A program made the translations under genes and the position numbers. The notes under the pieces were generated by a model. It was given only the letters and a program-made list of their open reading frames with translations, had not been told where the DNA came from and ran no database searches. From contig CM126225.1 of NCBI GenBank assembly GCA_052327205.1, positions 38,068,001 to 38,132,000 on the forward strand: 64,000 bases of DNA. Direction: 5' to 3'. Source of the DNA: Somniosus microcephalus (Eukaryota). Positions 30,291 to 63,685 of the stretch are shown in pieces. The first letter of the stretch is position 1. The number at the start of each line of letters is the position of its first letter.

Positions 30291-30465
30291 ATGTCAACCA
30301 ACAGCAGTTCGTGCACACCGCCTGGTAATGGACATGTAAATGGTTATCCAGTGCCCCATTACCCATTCTTCTTCCCACCGGTCCTCGGGGGCCTTTCACC
30401 ACCATCCATAAACGGATTGCAGCACCAGCTTCCAGTCAGTGGCTACAGTACCCCCTCACCTGCCA
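30291..30465 (+). CDS. RARA: Retinoic acid receptor alpha, isoform alpha-1 first coding exon (A region, 58 codons + 1 nt, phase 1)
   Basis: CCACC-ATG at 30291 translates [58 protein letters not shown]. This closely matches human RARalpha1 ([59 protein letters not shown]) and matches RARbeta1 less well. It ends at GCC A|GTAAGT, a perfect donor at the conserved A/B-region junction. Confidence 0.95.
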
Positions 30466-32139
30466 GTAAGTAACACGCCATCATTCATGTTTCAGATCTG
30501 TGTTTTTAACGGTATATAGTTTGCGTGTGTTTAAAAAGTACGCTTGAAGTTTGCCTTGTCTGGAATACAACTGCGGAGGTTTTGACTTGACATAATGCAT
30601 CTGTTGCAGCACACATGGCTGTACTCCCCATCCTTAGTGAATCACCAATTTGTTAGCTTTCAATTTATTTTATATTTGAAACAGTTTAGCAATGTATTTG
30701 GTTTGGGGATGCAAAATTAGGGACAGTAGGTGAAACTAACGAGGACAGTACAGGCTTCTGAAACTCTCGGGCAGGCTGGTGAACTGATTCCAAATGAAGT
30801 GTAATTGAATCTGCTGTTACGTTCTTATGCTGTCAGTGCTGCTAGTTACCAACACACAGGTCTTGTGCATCCAACGCTAACTTGCTGAATACACTAAAGC
30901 TGGCAGACAGGAACTTCATTTTGGGATTTTTGCTGGCTGTGCGACCCACACATTGGGAACGACTCGCCTTAACACAATACAAAATCAATGTGAAAGCAAC
31001 TTTTTGTATTGTCCCGTGTCTGAGTGTGTTTACCTTTAGTCGTTCAGTAATCAGGATTATCAGTTTTGCTTACCCTTATTCCTAAACACAGACTAGCACA
31101 TTTCAGTATTTTAACCAGATTTAACACTGATAAAACTGGACTCAAGGACAGTGAAATCTTCAATGGAGGACTTTTCTAAATATTAATGAAGTTCTACATT
31201 TCTACTGCTGCAGATGTTTGACCCGAGTAGTTTAGGGGTTAAAGCCTGTAGCCAAGATCCACTAACAGACAAGAATTGTTTCTAATGAGCCCTGTTTGGT
31301 GTTCATTTCAATGGGAAATGGAGTGTGTTCTGTTTGTTTGTTTATCTTTTAAGATATTTCATCAGCCCTGTAGGTAGCACAGTGAGACTGCACTTCTCGT
31401 TTGCATTGGGGCCCTGGGAGAAGCAGGGGGCTTCCTTCAGTTGCATTTATATTACAGAAGCTGTTCTATAATAACCTAGGCTGGCTATGTTGTTGAATTA
31501 GGTTCCCTGATCACTGATGAAGGTCTGTACACAATAGTGAAGATAAAACTGCACTGGTGCCTGTTAGGGATGGGCTTTACGCTCAGCCTCCGCATGCCCA
31601 GAAAGCTCCAAATGGCAGTGTTTACACTGCTGCCCTAGATGCAACAGGGAAAAGCATCTCTTCCATGTGGGTCTTAGCAACTCTGGAAGCAATAAAGCCA
31701 TCTTGTTTACCGTACAATGCTGCTGTCAAAGACAAGACTGCCAACACTGGCAGCACTAAGTGTAATCATTAGAGGAATATTGGACAGGACAAGGGAGTTA
31801 ACCCCTGCTGTTTGAAATTAATACCCTGAGATCTCTCTTGTCAACTAGGACAAAGAGGCAGAACTCCTATTTAATCCTTATTATCCAGATACTGTCAGAT
31901 TAGCACTAGTTTAGAATTTTGTGAGGCTGTTTGAGACTGCTGCTTTTATTACTGATTTTTTTATTGAACAGCAGCTATCGCACTCGCTAAAGATTGCATA
32001 GTATTGTTTAAACTAAAATGATAAGATTTGGATGCAAATAGAAATGTAAATAACATTGTGCGGAGTGTAGCTTGTTTCAAACTGTAAATTTTTGCTGGTG
32101 AAAGGGTATTGAAGCACTTACCACTGAACTGTGCTGCCT

Positions 32140-32716: not shown

Positions 32717-33632
32717 AAACATAGCAACATAGAAGATAGGAGCAGGAGTAGGCCATTCGGCCCCTCAAGCCTGTTCCGCCATTTAATGAGATCGTGGCTG
32801 ATCATCCAAATCACCCTGTGATCACCCTGTCCCTGCTTTCTCCCCATATCCCTTGATCCCTTTAGTCTTAAGAGATATATCTAACTCCCTTCTTGAATAT
32901 ATTAAATGAATTGGCCTCAATTGCCTTCTGGGTGAAGAAATTCCTCCTCATCTCTGTTCTAAATGGCTTACCCCTTATCCTTAGCCTGTGACCCGCCATC
33001 GGGAACATCCTTCCTGCATCTAGTCTGTCTAGTCCTGTTAGAATTTTATAAGTTTCAATGAGATCCCCTCTCATTCTTCTAAACTCTAGTGAATATAAGC
33101 CTAATCGACCCAATCTCTCTCCATACGTCATTCCTGCCATCCCAGGTATCAGTCTGGTGAATCTTCGCTGCACTCCCTCCATGGCAAGAACATCCTTCCT
33201 CAGATAAGGTGACCAAAACTGCACACAATACTCAAGTTGTGGTCTCACCAAGGCCCTGTACAACTGCAGCAAGACATCCTTGCTCCTGCACTCGATTCCT
33301 CTCGCTATGAAGGCCAACATACCATTTGCCTTCTTTAACCGCCTGCTGCACCTGCATGCTTACCTTCAGCGACTGGTGCACAAGGACACCCAGGTCTCGT
33401 TGCACTTCCCCTTTTCCCAATCTATTGCCGTTCAGATAATAATCTGCCTTCCTGTTTTTGCCACCAAAGTGGATAACCTCGCATTTATCCACATTGGGCA
33501 GATGCAGTATAATCACCCAACCTGTCCAAATCATACTGGAGTTTCTCGGCATCCTCCTCACAGCACACACGCCCACCCAGCTTTGTGTCATCTGCAAACT
33601 TGGGGATATTACATCTAGTTCCCTTGTCTAGA
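32717..33632 (-). mobile_element. CR1 LINE 3' fragment (RT C-terminus, frameshifted)
   Basis: ORFs 33232-33597 (NVDKCEVIHFGGKN...QRDLGVLVHQSLKVSMQVQQAVK) and 32868-33320 (LYRALVRPQLEYCVQFWSPYLRKD...RGDLIETYKIL). Confidence 0.95.
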
Positions 33633-33807
33633 TCGTGAAGTAACGTCCTTTTGTAGACCTCTTCTTCCTGCTACCATTAAAGAAATGAATGTAAAAAATA
33701 AAGCTATCTGGGACACATCAGCAAGTAAGCACTACTCCATGGAGGACCCTGATTTTTCGCTCCTTCGCCCTCCCTTTTCCTGATTGTGACAACTCATATT
33801 GGGGTAC

Positions 33808-33842
33808 AGTTCTGACGAAGGGTTCGACCCGAAACGTTGACT
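33808..33842 (+). ncRNA. Minimal type I hammerhead ribozyme motif (Penelope-type); activity untested
   Basis: AGUU-CUGACGA-A-GGGU(UCG)ACCC-GAAA-CG-UU-GACU: intact core, stem II, palindromic ACGU in place of stem III, 4-bp stem I. Confidence 0.7.
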
Positions 33843-33891
33843 CTGTTTCTCTCCGATGCTGCCTGATCCACTGAGCATTATTTTGTTATTG
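33813..33891 (+). mobile_element. Tiny Penelope-derived insertion starting at a hammerhead motif, 16-bp TSD, inside a family-B SINE
   Basis: TATTGGGGTACAGTTC at 33797-33812 and 33892-33907; body homologous to the pseudo-LTR copies at 53987-54175 and 60407-60945. Confidence 0.8.
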
Positions 33892-33907
33892 TATTGGGGT
33901 ACAGTTC

Positions 33908-34212
33908 CATGAGTAATTAAACCTCCCCACAGCTCATCCACATTAACGGTCTTCTGGTACGAAACTTAATAACGAACAACAGAAGAATATTCAATCGTGG
34001 GGAGCATTGCAGCCAAACTTGATCCTGTTCCTGCTTGTTATCCACTATCGATAATGATCAGAAGAGGAAACCCAATTAATTGTTTCCCACTCTTCTATAG
34101 TCCAGAGAAGCTGAACCCAACTGTGCCCAGGTTAGGGATCAAGCCTGAACGCTCCAGGTCTGCGTGGCTCAGTATTGAATCTCGCAGTGTGTTTACCTGC
34201 TGAGCCATCAGT
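33908..34212 (-). mobile_element. SINE family B (continues left to about 33750)
   Basis: GGGGAGCATTGCAGCCAAACTTGATCCTG...GGGATCAAGCCTG...GGTCTGCGTGGCTCAGT...CTGCTGAGCCATC. Confidence 0.65.
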
Positions 34213-35737
34213 AGATTGCAACCATCTCCAAAATTGAAAGTTAACATCTTCGCTGAAGTGGTGGCCACCTACTGGTGCTGCATGTTTTGCCCCCTGCGTT
34301 CAGTGAATGAAGAACATGTGCGACAGCGACAGTTCAGCAAAGCATTCAAAAAATGCTCGTGGATTAAAGGATTACAAACAATCTGGGCATAATTGCACAG
34401 TGAGCCAGAACCTTGTACCACATTGAGAGAGGCGGAGCATATCTTTTAATAACACGGGAATTTAGAGCAAAGGCCTCATCTAATCTGATATAAAAGCAAG
34501 TTGTCGGCGTTGATCTGAACAATTTGAAGGAGCTCATCCTGAATCCAATTTTTTTTTTTTGATATAAACCTCGTACTTTTTTCCCTGCCTGTCTTTTAGA
34601 TTTACAACATCACATCTTAAATAAAAGAAGTTGTCTCCCAGAACATCAATGTTCAGTTTGCTGTTGTGCTGCATTGTAATATGACAAGCAGCTCACTGTA
34701 AAATGAGACACCTCCAGGGTCCCACTTGTCCTCCTCAATGCTGATGAAAATTAAAGGTACCATTAAGAGTTACAGAATGCCTGTCGGCTCAGGTTGCAGA
34801 GCTAACACAATTACATTAATGTCTCTCCCGGTGCTACAGTGATTCCTTAAAGGTCAAGGGACAAGGTTTCCCTCTTTTTCTGGTGACGTGTCCTTCATAG
34901 TTCCCTGTAGACTGTGTTCAAGAGCTTTATTGTTTTGCCATCTTGGAATGTGCACTGATGATTATTTTTAGTGGTGCTAATTTTAGATTTCTGTCAAGTC
35001 TTTACACTGGTAGATTTGCTTAAAAAAAATTAAACCAGCAGTTTTGACACTAATAATCTTTCAGTCACCTCGTGCCTGTCACTGGTGCAGATTTTACAAA
35101 TCGCTGATCTCTGCATCAGGAGGGCAGCGTCCTAAAATGTACCTTTGTGTGTCTTGTCTGTTTAAGGATTCACACTGCTGTGTCTGTTGTGCTGAGTGTG
35201 AGGTGGACTCCTTCCCCCCCCCTGCGGGTACAGGACATTCCTCCTCCTCCTCTGGGCCTCCTCCACCAGGACCTCCAGTGCTGCGTCCGAGAACCTGTGC
35301 GCCATTTCCCTCGGACCCTGAGCCATCCTGAAACATGCCGCTGTGTGTCAGCCAGCGCATTTCACACCATCAGTGGAAGTGGGTGCGTGGGTCCACAGAC
35401 ACTGCTCTGCGAAAATTGCTTCTAATCGGCGCTTGAGTGCTAAACCTGCAGGTGTCTGTTCTAACGCCTCCAGGCAAGTTCAAATTATGGTAATCAGCAA
35501 TTAGGACCAAAATTGTGTGCCTAAAACCAGACTTTCAACCAGGCATGTCTTATTGGCACAGCACCCATTTAACGCTTGTTTTCACCCTGCCATCAAAATA
35601 ACCCCCACTGTCTTTTGGTTACTCATTGATCCCAGAACTGATCCATGGGGATGAACTATGTCCTTATATAAGTGGAGAAATCTACAAAATACAGAAATAA
35701 AATCTATTACTTAATAGTTAGACATCTCACTGAGATA

Positions 35738-38313: not shown

Positions 38314-38356
38314 AAAACAACAACAGAAAATGCTGGAAAAACTCAGCAGGCCAGGC
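38314..38356 (-). mobile_element. 43-bp Penelope pseudo-LTR fragment with 12-bp TSD
   Basis: AGGAATCTATTT at 38302-38313 and 38357-38368 flanking AAAACAACAACAGAAAATGCTGGAAAAACTCAGCAGGCCAGGC. Confidence 0.75.
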
Positions 38357-38564
38357 AGGAATCTATTTGTTGCCCTTGTTGTGCAAATAGAGCTGAGTCG
38401 ATGTATTTTCTCGTTGCAAATCGATTTCAGCAGCAAAATAACAACTGGATCCAAAAAATATTTGTTTGCCTGCTCCAAGACTCTCGTCAATTAATAAATG
38501 ACGGTATGGCTCCAGTCATTGCTGCAATTTAATCTCGAAGGGATGGTAGATTACATCGAGTTGC

Positions 38565-53986: not shown

Positions 53987-54175
53987 AAATTGAAAAGGCT
54001 GAACACACTCAGCCGCTCAGGCAGCATCTGTGGAGAGAGAAACAGAGTTGACATTTCAGGTTGATAACGTTAACTCTGTTTTTCCCTCTCCACAGATGTT
54101 GCCTGACCTGCTAAGTGTTTCCAGCATTTTCTGTTTCAATTTCAGATTTCCAGCATCTGCAGTATTTTGTTTTTG
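53987..54175. mobile_element. Penelope pseudo-LTR collapsed inverted repeat, 17-bp TSD with 1 mismatch
   Basis: TATAAGTGCAGGAGTAA (53970-53986) / TATAAGTTCAGGAGTAA (54176-54192); arms GGCAGCATCTGTGGAGAG..AAACAGAGTT / AACTCTGTTT..CTCTCCACAGATGTTGCC. Confidence 0.8.
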
Positions 54176-55774
54176 TATAAGTTCAGGAGTAACTTGTTTG
54201 AATTCTGGAATAGACTGCCATTTTGATGCAGGCTCCTGCGCTCATTGTCAGGGCTCACATATGAAGTAGGACCAGTTGAGTTAACAAAGGGCAGCTGGCA
54301 CCCATACAACCTTTGCGCCGCCCCCCCCCCCCCCCCGCATCAGTCAGGAGGAGAGGGAAAAAATTGTGTGGGAAGAAATTACTGGATAATTTAACGGCTG
54401 TAGCAATTTACTGCCATGCTGTGACTAATTATCTCTTTAAGGAATCTAAATTGAAGACCAGCATAGAATGATAATTTTGCAGTCATCCTGGCAGTCCAAT
54501 TGGGTAGAAGAGCTGCGACCATCTATGGGACACCTGGAAACCATCTGGCAAGCAGTACTGCAGCAGTTTCAGTATCTCCGATATAAGGAGGAACCATTGT
54601 TCTATTTACTCTTGAGTGTTCAAAAGGCATGGTTTTACGATTTCACGAGAGCTGCTCGCCAGAGGAAATATTCCTGAACATATTTAGGAAGCCATTAAAA
54701 ATAGCCTCCAGAGCTGTCTCCAATGGTGTCCCCTTCATTGCAGTGAAAAATCATGAATAGGAAGTATTTTAAAAAAAACCTGTGTCTCTCCCTCCACTGC
54801 ACTGGCTTTGGAAATGAGTATATTTTTCCACTGTTTTTTGACCCATGGTTTTTCATCATAGCAATACAGGAGACACCACAGTGCAACTCAAGTAAAAATA
54901 CTATGAAGGAAAGAAGTAGGGGGAGGCTACAGATAATCCGGCTATGTGCCACCATATTTTTGGCTGCTTATACAGCAGCTAAAAGGTCTGAAACCTGTGA
55001 GGAGAGATTTTCACCTCTGCACCATTTGTAGCAAAATTAGCAATGTTTTTGTGAAGGAGATGTCCAATTTTACTACAAGTACTAAAGGCATTTCCACTCG
55101 CTCCCCTGTGTGGCACCTTTTTATAAGGTAAGTTTCTGAAGAGTGGGCTGTTTGAAAATTGTGGCATTTATGGGAACAAACAGAACAAAGCAACATAGTC
55201 GTCATGCTCCCTTTTATATTACGATAGAAGGGTAGACGACGTCAATCCACTTCAAAAGCTAAACTTAACCCACAAGAGCAGCCTGGTTCCATTCCCACCT
55301 TGCTTCAAAAGCTTATTCTGAACGTAAAATGAATATCAGACATTTCCTGGTCTACATAAATAAAGGACAATACCTACTTAACTCCGGCATTGTCAGCCAG
55401 GTCCTGACAATGTGTAATAATTCTAAATAATTAATTCAATGGTTCCTACATCAAACTCGCATTCACAGAGATGTTAGTAATCTATCACCACACAATAGCC
55501 TTGGACAACACCAGGTACTTTAATTGCTTTAGTGGGGGCAATCTGTCTCTTAAGTTTGCCTCATAAAATTCCCTTTTTACTCATTGCTGCTTGAAGTGTT
55601 CTGAACTTTATTGTATGTTTGTTCTTGCTTTGGGGCTCAGTAAAGGAGACCATAAAAGATATTTAACACAGACAGACATTAAGATGGAAAGCTATTACAG
55701 TTTCTATTTATTAAAAACATTGAGCAATAGCTCTGATGGCAAATTGAGTTTGTCCACTGAATTGATGGCCACAA

Positions 55775-59000: not shown

Positions 59001-60406
59001 TCAGTCCTACCGGAATCTGTTAATTTTTTTTAATTAATTACTTTTCTAAAAATGATGAGGATGATGTGAGATTCCATCCCTTGCCCTACCCCTATCCGGT
59101 TTTGGACAGGACAAAAAGTGGCAACTTGAAACCCATCAGCTAAGCAATCTGGAGACCGTTGGAGGGGCCCGATTTTGAAATAATCCTGATCATGCTGATT
59201 CCATCAGTTGGTCCATTTTCAGCTTTTGACAGATTTTGCAAAATAGCTATAGGAGGTTTCGCTGATGGTTTCACATTTCTAAGTTATAGATGAAAGCATT
59301 TTTTATTTCTTCCAGCCACATAGTTTGCGCTGGAACCTTAATTCCACAATACCATTAGAAATGGATGAAATTTGTAATTGGTAACATTCGGATTAAGTGT
59401 ACAGCGCTGAAAGGTCTTAATTGAGCCAGTGCTGCTTTACATAAAAACCAGCAGGGATTTTTAGTAGTGTATAAAAGGTATCATTATCAAATATGTTTTC
59501 AAATGGAAAGCAATTATCGAGCAATGTAACTGCATATTTGAAACTCCCTGCAGGCAAATTTTAATAGTCTGAATAATGTGCACCAGTTTATTTAAAAAGC
59601 ATTTCCCCAAAAGATAATTTTTTTAAAAAGTGAAATTATTTCTTTCAAACATACAGGGAAGTATTTCTACAATGCTAATGCTTGAAGGGAGGTGGTGGAG
59701 GCTTGCTCTACCCCCTTCTCCTAAAATAAATTCCTCCACATTAGTTAACATTTTCGTCCTGTATATTTATGTATATGTTATATACAAGTCTTGCATCTAG
59801 TGCACATCTATCACATCTCAAGTGTCACACTTTGTTACAAATGCTAACAGCAACAAATCACAGTGGAAGTCTTTACAGGAGTATTTTTTTTTAAAAAGCC
59901 AATCATTGCTTGCTGCATTCTCTGACCTTGATAACCTGGCTTCTTCCAAGGGCAGGAGCCAGGAATTTACAAGCAGTTGCCAATCTAGAGAAACCTCCCT
60001 CAGCAATTTGCCTCTAATTGACCTCGTGATGTGCCAACTTAGATCATTTCCCCACAGGGAATGGCTTTGAAGGGATAAGCCAAGTTAAACACACTTCCAT
60101 TCTATCAGCTAAACATCAAAACCTTCAGACCAAAGACCATTCATGAGCAATGCCACAGGAGATCGAGTTAGTGTTAAATATGTAGCTAGAGGAAATCTGG
60201 AAGTGATTCCATTCTGGTGTAAGCTCACTCAAAACAGAGCTAGATGTTTTGCCCCTTCTTTCCTGAAGTTGCTGACTCGTGTTGTTCAATATTATAGGCA
60301 CCCAGTAACTGCAGTATCTTTCTCAAGAGACCATTCTTTGCGTGAGCCTAGATGGTGAGCATCAGCAGACTATTTGTCTGTGAAGGACAGCATAGCTTAG
60401 CCCACT

Positions 60407-60945
60407 AAAATAACAACAGAAAACACTGGAAAAACTCAGCAGGCCAGGCAGCATCCGTGGAGCGAGAAACAGAGTTAACATTTCAGGTCTGGGACCCTTC
60501 ATCAGAACTGGAAAAAGCTGGAGATGTAACAGGTGCAGAGACAGGAGTGGATGAAGGAATATACTGTGCTTTTGTAAGAGGCAGGAAAGGTAAAATGTTG
60601 CAAATGGGAATGGCAAAATCATACAGCATGAAAAATGGGGGTAGGGGTTATAGTTTGAAATTGTTGAACTCAGTGTTGAGGCCAGAAGGCTTTAAAGTGC
60701 CTAATCAAAAGATGAGGTGCTGTTCCTCGACCTTACATTGAGCTACATTGGAACAATGTAATAGGCCGAGGACAGAGATCAGAGTGGGAGTGAAGCAGTG
60801 AATTAAAGTGACAGGCGACCGGACTGAACGGAGGTGTTCCACAAAGCACCTCTCTCCATGGATGCTGCCTGGCCTGCTGATTTTTTTCCAGCGTTTTCTG
60901 TTGTTATTTCAGATTTCCAGCATCCGCAGTATTTTGCTATTGTAT
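60407..60945 (-). mobile_element. Penelope-like retroelement remnant: GIY-YIG endonuclease C-terminus, hammerhead motif, inverted pseudo-LTR, 14-bp TSD
   Basis: TAGCTTAGCCCACT at 60393-60406 and 60946-60959. Minus strand 60655-60848 reads CFVEHLRSV/PVACHFNSLLHSHS/ISVLGLLHCSNVAQCKVEEQHLIF*LGTLKPSGLNTEFNNFK. Confidence 0.85.
60473..60509 (-). ncRNA. Degenerate minimal hammerhead ribozyme motif
   Basis: Minus strand AGUU-CUGAUGA-A-GGGUC(CCA)GACCU-GAAA-UG-UU-AACU; CpG decay breaks the ACGU palindrome. Confidence 0.6.
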
Positions 60946-63685
60946 TAGCTTAGCCCACTTCTGTTTTCATCTAACAGGCACACACTTTCTAGCAGTAGTA
61001 ACTAGATAGCAGTCAACAGCAGGAATATTGGCTGATGTTTCCCCTACCTGCCCAGCAACGGATGCTGATAATTGTAGTACCTGTACCGCTGAACAGACTG
61101 GGAATCAAACCTGGAACCTGTATGACTCAGTTACATGCTATTTACCAAATGAGCCATTAGGGGAGCAACTCATACTTGTACTTCTTGCTCAATTCAACTA
61201 TTTTTATTTTTTTTAAAGGTAAGCTACCGTTCTATTAATGCCAAGACCATGTTGGTTGACGGAGCCTTGTCTTATGGGTATTGTAGTTCATAGGATTGAA
61301 AATGTGGCAGCTAATCACAATGTTGCTGGCAAATTTTTCAAAAGAGTTCAGTGTTGTGATGTAGGTTCAACTAAACATCTTCTCGTGTTTCATTGTTTAG
61401 ACGAGAGCTTCCTTTACAATGAGGCTGTTCATTCAGATCTAATCCGCATTAACAATTATTTTAAACTAAACATCCCATTGAGTGTTAGCTGATATGAACT
61501 GTGGAAACATTTTGGGGGTGCTACAAATGGCCTTGACACCTCTGGCCTAGATTGGGGGGGGGAAAGCAATCTCTGTGCAGTGACTCCCACTGGAAAGCGT
61601 ACCCTCACTGGGTTTGTTCATGGAAAATGACCACTTGCAAGAGGCACTGAAGTGTTGCCACACTTGTGGAACTGTACCCAGAGGATGGATAATTAGGATT
61701 TGTCTGATTTGAACTTGGCCCATTCTGCTCCCGAAATCGACTCATCATGATCATAAAAACCTGAAGAATTTCTTTTAATCCCCAGCTCTGGGCAAACTTT
61801 TAGTGTGTCAACACGGGAATAAATCATTATCTACAGTTCCCTTATCACTCTGTTGACATACTTTCTGTCCACTGTCCAGTGTCCACTTCCACAGTTAATA
61901 ATTAATGGCTGACAGAGTCCATTTCGTTGCAATAAATAGGCCAGATTCCTTTACTCTATCTCACCAGGTAGTATTTAAAAAGAAATCAAACTATTTCCTG
62001 TGCTTTGTGTTGGCTGATTATGTTCCAATTATTTCACCCAATGATTTTTCTTTTATATTTTACAATGCTTGACCTGCTCTTATTTTCTTTCCCTGCATGT
62101 ACCGCCACAAAATCCATAAGAGATCAAGTGAAGTCAATATCTAAATGGCATTCACGGTGGCACTTTACAAATTACGTTGGTGTAATAGCACATCACAGCC
62201 ATGAAGGGATAGCATGGCAGTAAAGTTACACCTTTTGTGAGTCGAAGACCAGACCAGGGCAGGATAGGGATGTGACAGAGGTGGGATCAAGTTCATGGGT
62301 CGAGTTCTGAGGATTGTCTTTGGCTATGATGAAAATTTATTGCAAAACTTAATACATTTTAATCTCGCCATGCCATGAAGAGAGAAGTAAGTGGAGAAAA
62401 TTGACTTTTATTTTAAAATCCAGATATTAAGACGCTGATAATCAAATAGTGGGCAGCCAGTGTAGGCGATGAGCAGAGGGGCCTTGGAGGCAGCTCATGA
62501 GTTGTGACCTAAGCTCATTAGACCCTTGAGTTGTATTTAAATGAGATGCCTACCTTAATGTGGCTGGAGTGCCTGAGCAGCACTCAAGCTGAACAATACT
62601 TGTTTTGAACAGTTATTGAAGAGAAGCCCAATTTTTTTTAAAAAATCTGCCTGATGCTCCTTCTGTCCCCAACCCCCTGCCCGGTGCCCTCCCGTGCTGG
62701 GAAAGTGCTCTGCCAGCAATGGGAAACCAGTAGTCCTTCGCTGGTTTTAGCGCCTAATAATGCAGCCCTGATGCTCGCAGCACGTTGAGAGAGATAGGCG
62801 TGAAGCACCAGCACATTTGTACATGGATTGGCCTTGCATCGTCAGGCAAGGTCACTTGTGCACGGGTGCAAGTACCACAGACATCGGTGGCGCGACACTT
62901 GGCCTCATTATCACCCCCTGGACGTCTAGTTTAAATTTGAAGAAATTCCAAGAAAAGCCAACTCAAGAAAAGAGCTTTGCAGATGGATAGTGATCTTAAC
63001 CACCCAACTGGTCAGTTTTCTGCTTTATATTGGGCCTTTTGAGGCAGATGGCAAACAGAGGAGGCAGGAGGCATTTATACTGGCCTGATGCAAACCTCCT
63101 GTATTTCAGCCTAAACTAACTTGGGAGGTCAAGAGGTGAGAATCTGTATATGGAAATACAAATGGAATTAAATAACTCAACATTGCTTATGGTTAAACAC
63201 ACAGTGTAATACCAGCTATAAATGTACAAATCCAGATTTGTGCCTTAAATGTGATGAACGGTTTTATTCCCACTTTAACATCAGAACAAATGTAAATTTA
63301 TAGCTGTGGTGTAAACAGGGCTTTTGCAGTGACCAGCTTTACTGTTTATTGACCAGATGTCAGACGAGGCTGGTAAATAATCTTGGCAGCAGCTATTGTC
63401 CTGGGTGCTGCGAGTGGTGTGTGAATTCCTTTATCTCAGGTAATTCTGCACATTCCTGTCAATCACTTTATGGTGGCCTGGAGGATATGGGCCTGTTAAC
63501 TGTCTGTCTGGACTGCTATCCCAACACAAAGGCAGGATTGTTTTATTGAAGCGGTGGAGAACAAAAGCCCCCCAGAATGTAAATACTGCAAATAAAAGGT
63601 GCTAACGCAAGCGCCTTCATACTGGTTTAGTTCAGATCCTTGGAGAGTGGCATCCTTGAGCCAGTTCCCTGCCATTGCACTACTA

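Follow-up and report, generated by a model that had tools for sequence, protein, structure and literature searches.

Minimal type I hammerhead ribozymes (min-HHRs) are a described feature of metazoan Penelope-like elements (PLEs). They have a short helix I, an extra base between positions 9 and 10.1, a G10.1-C11.1 pair and palindromic positions 15.2-16.2, and lack helix III; they occur mostly as scattered single motifs from truncated elements, and the genomes of coelacanth and Xenopus are reported to have thousands each (Cervera and de la Pena 2014, PMC4209133). The monomer was without detectable activity and dimers were weak even in cis (PMC4209133), and a dimer model for these hammerheads has been reviewed (PMC6765202). 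In PAc, the Poseidon element of Anolis carolinensis, the hammerhead lies at the junction of pseudo-LTR and ORF, short genomic tail copies are found, and there are two classes of 3' end, both inside the start of the ORF and separated by 30-40 bases (Frangieh et al. 2024, PMC11167929). The PAc motif cleaves only with the element protein, is dispensable for insertion in vitro, and has no RNA-seq ends at its site (PMC11167929). Two other systems are related. The amniote intronic type I hammerheads of RECK, CTCL and DTNB lie in introns of protein-coding genes, and are proposed to be of retroelement origin; their conservation extends over whole classes, and they are depicted with tertiary contacts (PMC6155905). 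Non-LTR retrozymes are non-coding, carry type I hammerheads and derive from Penelope-like pseudo-LTRs, and one cartilaginous fish is among the genomes that bear them (bioRxiv 10.64898/2026.07.22.740005).

In this study, we analysed a window of 64,000 nucleotides from Somniosus microcephalus, which contains a hammerhead motif in an intron of a retinoic acid receptor gene. The motif has every structural feature listed above for the PLE min-HHRs, with the CUGANGA and GAAA..UH boxes and helices I and II, albeit with a shorter helix II (4 bp with a 3-base loop) than the schistosome examples of PMC4209133. Its parent family resembles PAc in the position of the hammerhead, the short tail copies and the two 3' end classes, but differs in having a cysteine linker between reverse transcriptase (RT) and endonuclease. 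Unlike the RECK, CTCL and DTNB hammerheads, it is a minimal motif within a recognisable repeat copy that has hundreds of equals, and unlike active retrozymes, whose definition asks for two or more tandem units with complete hammerheads (10.64898/2026.07.22.740005), it is a single unit. Motifs of this class, scattered through vertebrate genomes, have thus been published before, although no cartilaginous fish is named in the part of PMC4209133 used here. A search of a limited set of papers found no publication that treats such motifs in sharks, nor one on the pile-up of 5' ends that we describe below. We consider it very probable that the locus is a short piece of an abundant PLE, its hammerhead-plus-tail end, which was inserted long ago, and that the lone hammerhead is inert in the sense that it makes no useful cut in the RARA pre-mRNA.

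Structure of the insertion

An exact 16-bp direct repeat is present at 33797-33812 and 33892-33907, with a spacing of 95 bases and 79 bases between the copies, and the 79-bp insertion described in the first-pass annotation therefore holds at its coordinates. Homology to the element extends over 33807-33895 (plus strand, as are all features below), and covers a pseudo-LTR end, the hammerhead and a long tail with internal deletions of 4 and 44 bases. This homology overlaps both copies of the putative target-site duplication: the last 6 bases of the left copy are also the element's own 5' end, and the first 4 bases of the right copy also match the end of the element tail.

Read from the sequence after the scheme of PMC4209133, the motif starts with the helix I 5' strand AGUU (33808-33811), identical in the long family copies, followed by the core CUGACGA (33812-33818) and the extra A (33819). 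Helix II (33820-33830) has 4 bp, formed by GGGU (33820-33823) and ACCC (33827-33830), with a G10.1-C11.1 pair and the 3-base loop UCG. It is followed by GAAA (33831-33834), by the palindrome ACGU (33834-33837) in place of helix III and by U17 (U33838), these together spanning 33831-33838, and the helix I 3' strand GACU (33839-33842) closes the motif with one G.U pair. From hammerhead numbering, the predicted cut lies between 33838 and 33839. The complete set of catalytic-core nucleotides, the 4-bp stem II and the ACGU palindrome in place of stem III, all claimed earlier, can thus be read in the window. A strict hammerhead descriptor matched the window once and matched none of 200 block-shuffled windows. 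An Rfam scan (E<=5) gave four weak matches with no hammerhead family among them, presumably because helix III is missing. Two features of canonical intronic type I hammerheads are absent: there is no helix III, and helix I has 4 bp rather than 6 bp with loop contacts.

It had also been suggested that the motif was completed by microhomology with the target. This is misleading, since in the long family copies the helix I 5' strand and the core C are part of the element itself, and for the same reason the host did not create the motif. The window copy starts at -5 relative to the core nucleotide C3, where many family copies start, and the overlap at its left junction is ordinary junction microhomology with no host-made motif.

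Host gene and age of the insertion

A retinoic acid receptor gene, with RAR-alpha as best match, has its first coding exon, which encodes the A region, at 30291-30465 on the plus strand, followed by a GT donor at 30466. It joins in frame, across an intron of 117 kb, with a zinc-finger exon on the same strand (acceptor G000:C24:38215856). Against solved structures, this DNA-binding exon scored 99.4 bits with RAR-alpha and 98.7, 96.3 and 95.3 bits with other RAR entries. The host gene is thus best matched, by sequence, to a retinoic acid receptor, with RAR-alpha preferred by a narrow margin, and the preference for RARA comes partly from what we take to be a likeness of the A region. The hammerhead is in the sense orientation of this gene, and the distance of 3.3 kb from the coding exon given earlier is borne out by the donor, which lies 3.34 kb upstream. 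No alternative RARA first exon was found in the intron with the motifs used for the search, and six frames from the window gave no Pfam match. Minus-strand frames at 32868-33627, ending about 170 bases before the insertion, have similar sequence in loci L062 and L099; they gave no Pfam match, and we take them to be like the 3' end of a CR1-type LINE.

Contigs of a related organism, B, cover 33825-34700, with no change listed in 33825-33907. Those of a second one, C, span 33645-33823 and 33875-34700 and differ from the window at 34 of about 826 bases; its flanks are about 4% diverged, and the core at 33824-33874 lies outside the coverage of its locus-specific contigs. As the contigs of organism C cover both junctions, the insertion is old and shared; it is present in two related organisms.

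Family pieces are frequent over the gene. In the window and the next 200 kb (264 kb in total) we found 22 of them, 10 sense and 12 antisense, and a relaxed descriptor found six places. Apart from the motif itself, just one of these is in sense orientation; it is situated 187 kb downstream, with a G.U at 10.1-11.1. With 22 pieces over this one gene and 787 strict motifs genome-wide, a special link of the hammerhead to RARA is unsupported. Several of the pieces have arrangements of their own. At 53993-54176, two tail copies stand head to head, joined near the hammerhead palindrome, an inverted arrangement typical of Penelope-like insertions. The region 60405-60949 contains an antisense hammerhead-bearing copy (60515-60405) whose palindrome has lost its CpG, a fragment of the GIY-YIG end (60823-60648) and a piece of the tail in sense orientation (60861-60949), and these three are probably one inverted insertion. 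A short antisense tail fragment is present at 38315-38358, and in a later intron of the same gene two near-intact family hammerheads lie on opposite strands 2.1 kb apart (L200:6712, plus; L200:4602, minus).

Parent family

The strict full-motif pattern has at least 787 matches in the genome, the 27-base core 89 exact copies and a 38-base stretch of the tail 305 exact copies, with no match for the reversed pattern in any of the three cases. A first look by repeat search returned 1239 candidates, 40 of which were scored. Six long copies share 1.4-2.1 kb of upstream sequence that codes for RT motifs, a Cys-x4-Cys-x2-Cys linker and GIY-YIG, all in broken natural copies. Three of seven frames matched Pfam, with GIY-YIG at E=0.0004 and 0.0008 and RVT_1 at E=0.007, all under the curated cut-offs, and Atlas neighbours carry GIY-YIG at 0.96-0.97. 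The linker, of the type CKRRRCNTC, was found in loci L061, L063 and L065. In the long copies the hammerhead lies about 300 bases after the GIY-YIG stop, and in ORF-bearing copies it lies just before the ORF start, where the sequence downstream of the tail runs on into the element ORF. The hammerhead thus sits in the pseudo-LTR of a PLE, and the parent family has a single ORF with RT and C-terminal GIY-YIG, a coding part that the window copy lacks. With RT, cysteine linker and GIY-YIG in the long copies, the earlier assignment to the minimal type I hammerheads of PLEs (PMC4209133) is well founded, and the parent layout is, from its coding sequence, that of an endonuclease-bearing PLE. A cysteine linker between RT and endonuclease, in Neptune of the form Cys-x2-5-Cys-x2-Cys, marks Neptune and Nematis (PMC8557442), and by this feature the sequence points to one of these two for the parent family.

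The copies also show other traits of endonuclease-bearing PLEs, namely 5' truncation, inverted 5' copies and an optional tail of 30-40 bases. Among 87 copies, the 3' ends fall into two classes, 39 long and 48 short, and the window copy belongs to the long one. Among the short copies, 10 of 23 ends have an inverted piece upstream and 17 a flanking repeat of at least 9 bases. Among 48 copies sampled by their tail and spanning the motif, the 35-base motif is letter-perfect in 2, and all core bases and both helices are retained in 8. Within the family, helix I position 1.1 is G in some copies and A in others, with the same U as pairing partner, and loop II is 3 to 5 bases long depending on the subfamily.

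Two clusters of copies deserve separate mention. At G000:C3:228788000-228835000 (L099), eight family matches lie exactly 5700 bases apart, with one family copy per unit; this 5.7-kb array was rejected as a tandem Penelope array, being a duplicated mix of LINE pieces. On G000:C35 at 155.9-162.2 Mb (L157-L167, L173-L176, L184) and on G000:C42, many near-identical loci have one element junction in common, which suggests that a larger repeat unit or a gene cluster has been amplified on each contig.

Distribution of 5' ends

For 85 loci, selected only for a match to the tail pattern from the first 100 matches listed of 305, we mapped the 5' ends of 87 copies. Eight tandem duplicates and five previously examined loci, four of which also start at the hot spot, were left out. 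Relative to C3, 23 of the 87 ends fall at -8 to 0, a 9-base stretch where helix I starts. The next 20 bases upstream (-28 to -9) have no ends; 18 fall at -203 to -29 and 24 at +1 to +40, and 22 run past the analysed range. The number expected in the 9-base hot spot is 1.5 from the upstream rate (P 2e-19) or 4.2 from the downstream rate (P 2e-10). The window copy, at -5, is a typical member of this class.

The D. virilis Penelope has an internal promoter in its pseudo-LTR (PMC2377424). There is about an even chance, on our analysis, that the pile-up likewise marks the start of the element RNA, in which case the stubs would be complete start-to-tail products rather than random truncations; a stop of the RT or a bias in joining is a possible alternative. 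In a hand count of 5' junctions made with a cap-derived G in mind, G precedes 7 of 14 ends at -4 but only 9 of 26 at -3, and numerous ends reach as far as -5. The hot-spot sequence resembles an initiator, and a 3' splice site as well.

Other explanations of the short copies found no support. Cleaved RNA as the insertion template does not fit, as none of the 85 loci starts exactly at the cut site and only 3 within 3 bases. Nor is there support for splicing into the acceptor-like stretch that precedes helix I, of the kind known from D. virilis Penelope: short copies have no upstream exon in common, and no GT..AG joint to this stretch was listed in the two RNA runs, whose reads come mostly from passenger copies. 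Snap-back of the cDNA on helix I was dismissed because the inverted pieces do not end at the predicted place. The sharp boundary at helix I, together with almost no ends at the predicted cut, suggests that the RNA template is uncleaved, which fits the in vitro data for PAc.

Predicted activity

By nearest-neighbour folding, which ignores the tertiary energy of the core, a fold with a mispaired core (-7.9 kcal/mol) is favoured over the hammerhead fold (-5.3 kcal/mol). Within the intron, helix I is predicted to pair with a probability of 0.01, and the insert as a whole is no more stable than its shuffles (z -0.16). Two copies of the motif are predicted to pair at -8.4 kcal/mol relative to the monomers, including via the palindrome, but in the predicted dimer the two strands form a nearly complete duplex with a mispaired core, which is not the catalytic fold. 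The first-pass annotation counted the short stem I and the GUU site as weaknesses of this copy. Both are traits of the family rather than defects, and GUU is listed among active hammerhead sites (PMC3138052); the expectation of weak or no activity is the right one. Our literature search found no source with quantitative cleavage rates for GUU against GUC.

RNA data came from two runs under the same species label, of which 24% and 31% were read. All of the 512 mapped reads in one run and 779 of 780 in the other fit the locus only partly, and thus derive from other family copies. Family RNA is abundant on both strands in both runs, with a level depth across the predicted cut and no pile-up of ends there, and the depth in the flanks of the locus itself is only 0 to 1, so that these runs speak for the family and not for this locus. 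A look-up by locus listed no RNA data set for it, which carries no weight as evidence. In one of the two runs only, 133 RNA molecules start at one place about 35 bases before the hammerhead at L180:1331, a cluster that could be due to duplicates or to one host transcript.

Proposed origin and function of the insertion

We propose the following origin for the insertion. The GIY-YIG endonuclease of the element would have nicked the intron, and reverse transcription may have begun inside the element RNA at the distal tail site, as it does in vitro for PAc. Synthesis of cDNA would then have stopped at the 5' strand of helix I, a very frequent end of family copies, and the cDNA was probably joined via the 6-base microhomology, leaving the 16-bp duplication. 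The copy would be inert since it needs a second one to form helix III via the ACGU palindrome, and since PAc needed the element protein too. Three findings do not sit easily with this reading. The 35-base motif of the window is letter-perfect and the insertion is old enough to be shared with organism C, both of which speak against pure decay, and family RNA on both strands means that partners in trans exist in principle.

It is conceivable, albeit unlikely, that the motif has an accidental and occasional activity, in which pairing in trans with family RNAs or folding by the element protein leads to cutting of a minor fraction of the RARA pre-mRNA without any selected function. Nothing is missing from the core or the two helices, both RNA runs are rich in family RNA, pairing between motifs is predicted to be favourable, the palindrome included, and the PAc hammerhead is assisted by protein (PMC11167929). 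Against these stand the mispaired core of the predicted dimer, the weakness of published dimers even in cis (PMC4209133) and the lack of an end pile-up at the site in family RNA. Less credible still is a selected version of the same events, in which a core kept by selection would pair via its palindrome with family RNAs from elsewhere, or fold with the element protein, and cut RARA pre-mRNA early in the intron. If this were true, expression of the retroelement would act in trans on hundreds of host introns, and mobile-element RNA would control a developmental regulator through ribozyme pairing. The perfect core, however, argues only weakly for selection, because hundreds of copies are intact and the first-pass annotation picked this one for its intactness. 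Similarly improbable is a domesticated intronic ribozyme that tunes RARA pre-mRNA processing, like the amniote RECK or DTNB hammerheads: although the motif is sense and near the 5' end of a long intron, has a perfect core (2 of 48 sampled copies) beside a tail with two deletions, and belongs to an insertion common to three organisms, and although conserved intronic hammerheads are known from amniotes (PMC6155905), it lacks helix III and a nearby partner, intact sense copies in introns are expected among 787 strict motifs from which this one was picked for intactness, and conservation of its core is seen only against a relative that is 99.6% identical.

In summary, an old Penelope-like insertion with a predicted inert hammerhead remains our preferred reading, and the locus itself matters little, being one more copy of a described retroelement motif. 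The more useful lead is the pile-up of family 5' ends at helix I, of which the part of PMC11167929 used here makes no mention for PAc, and which gives a precise place at which to seek the transcription start of the element.
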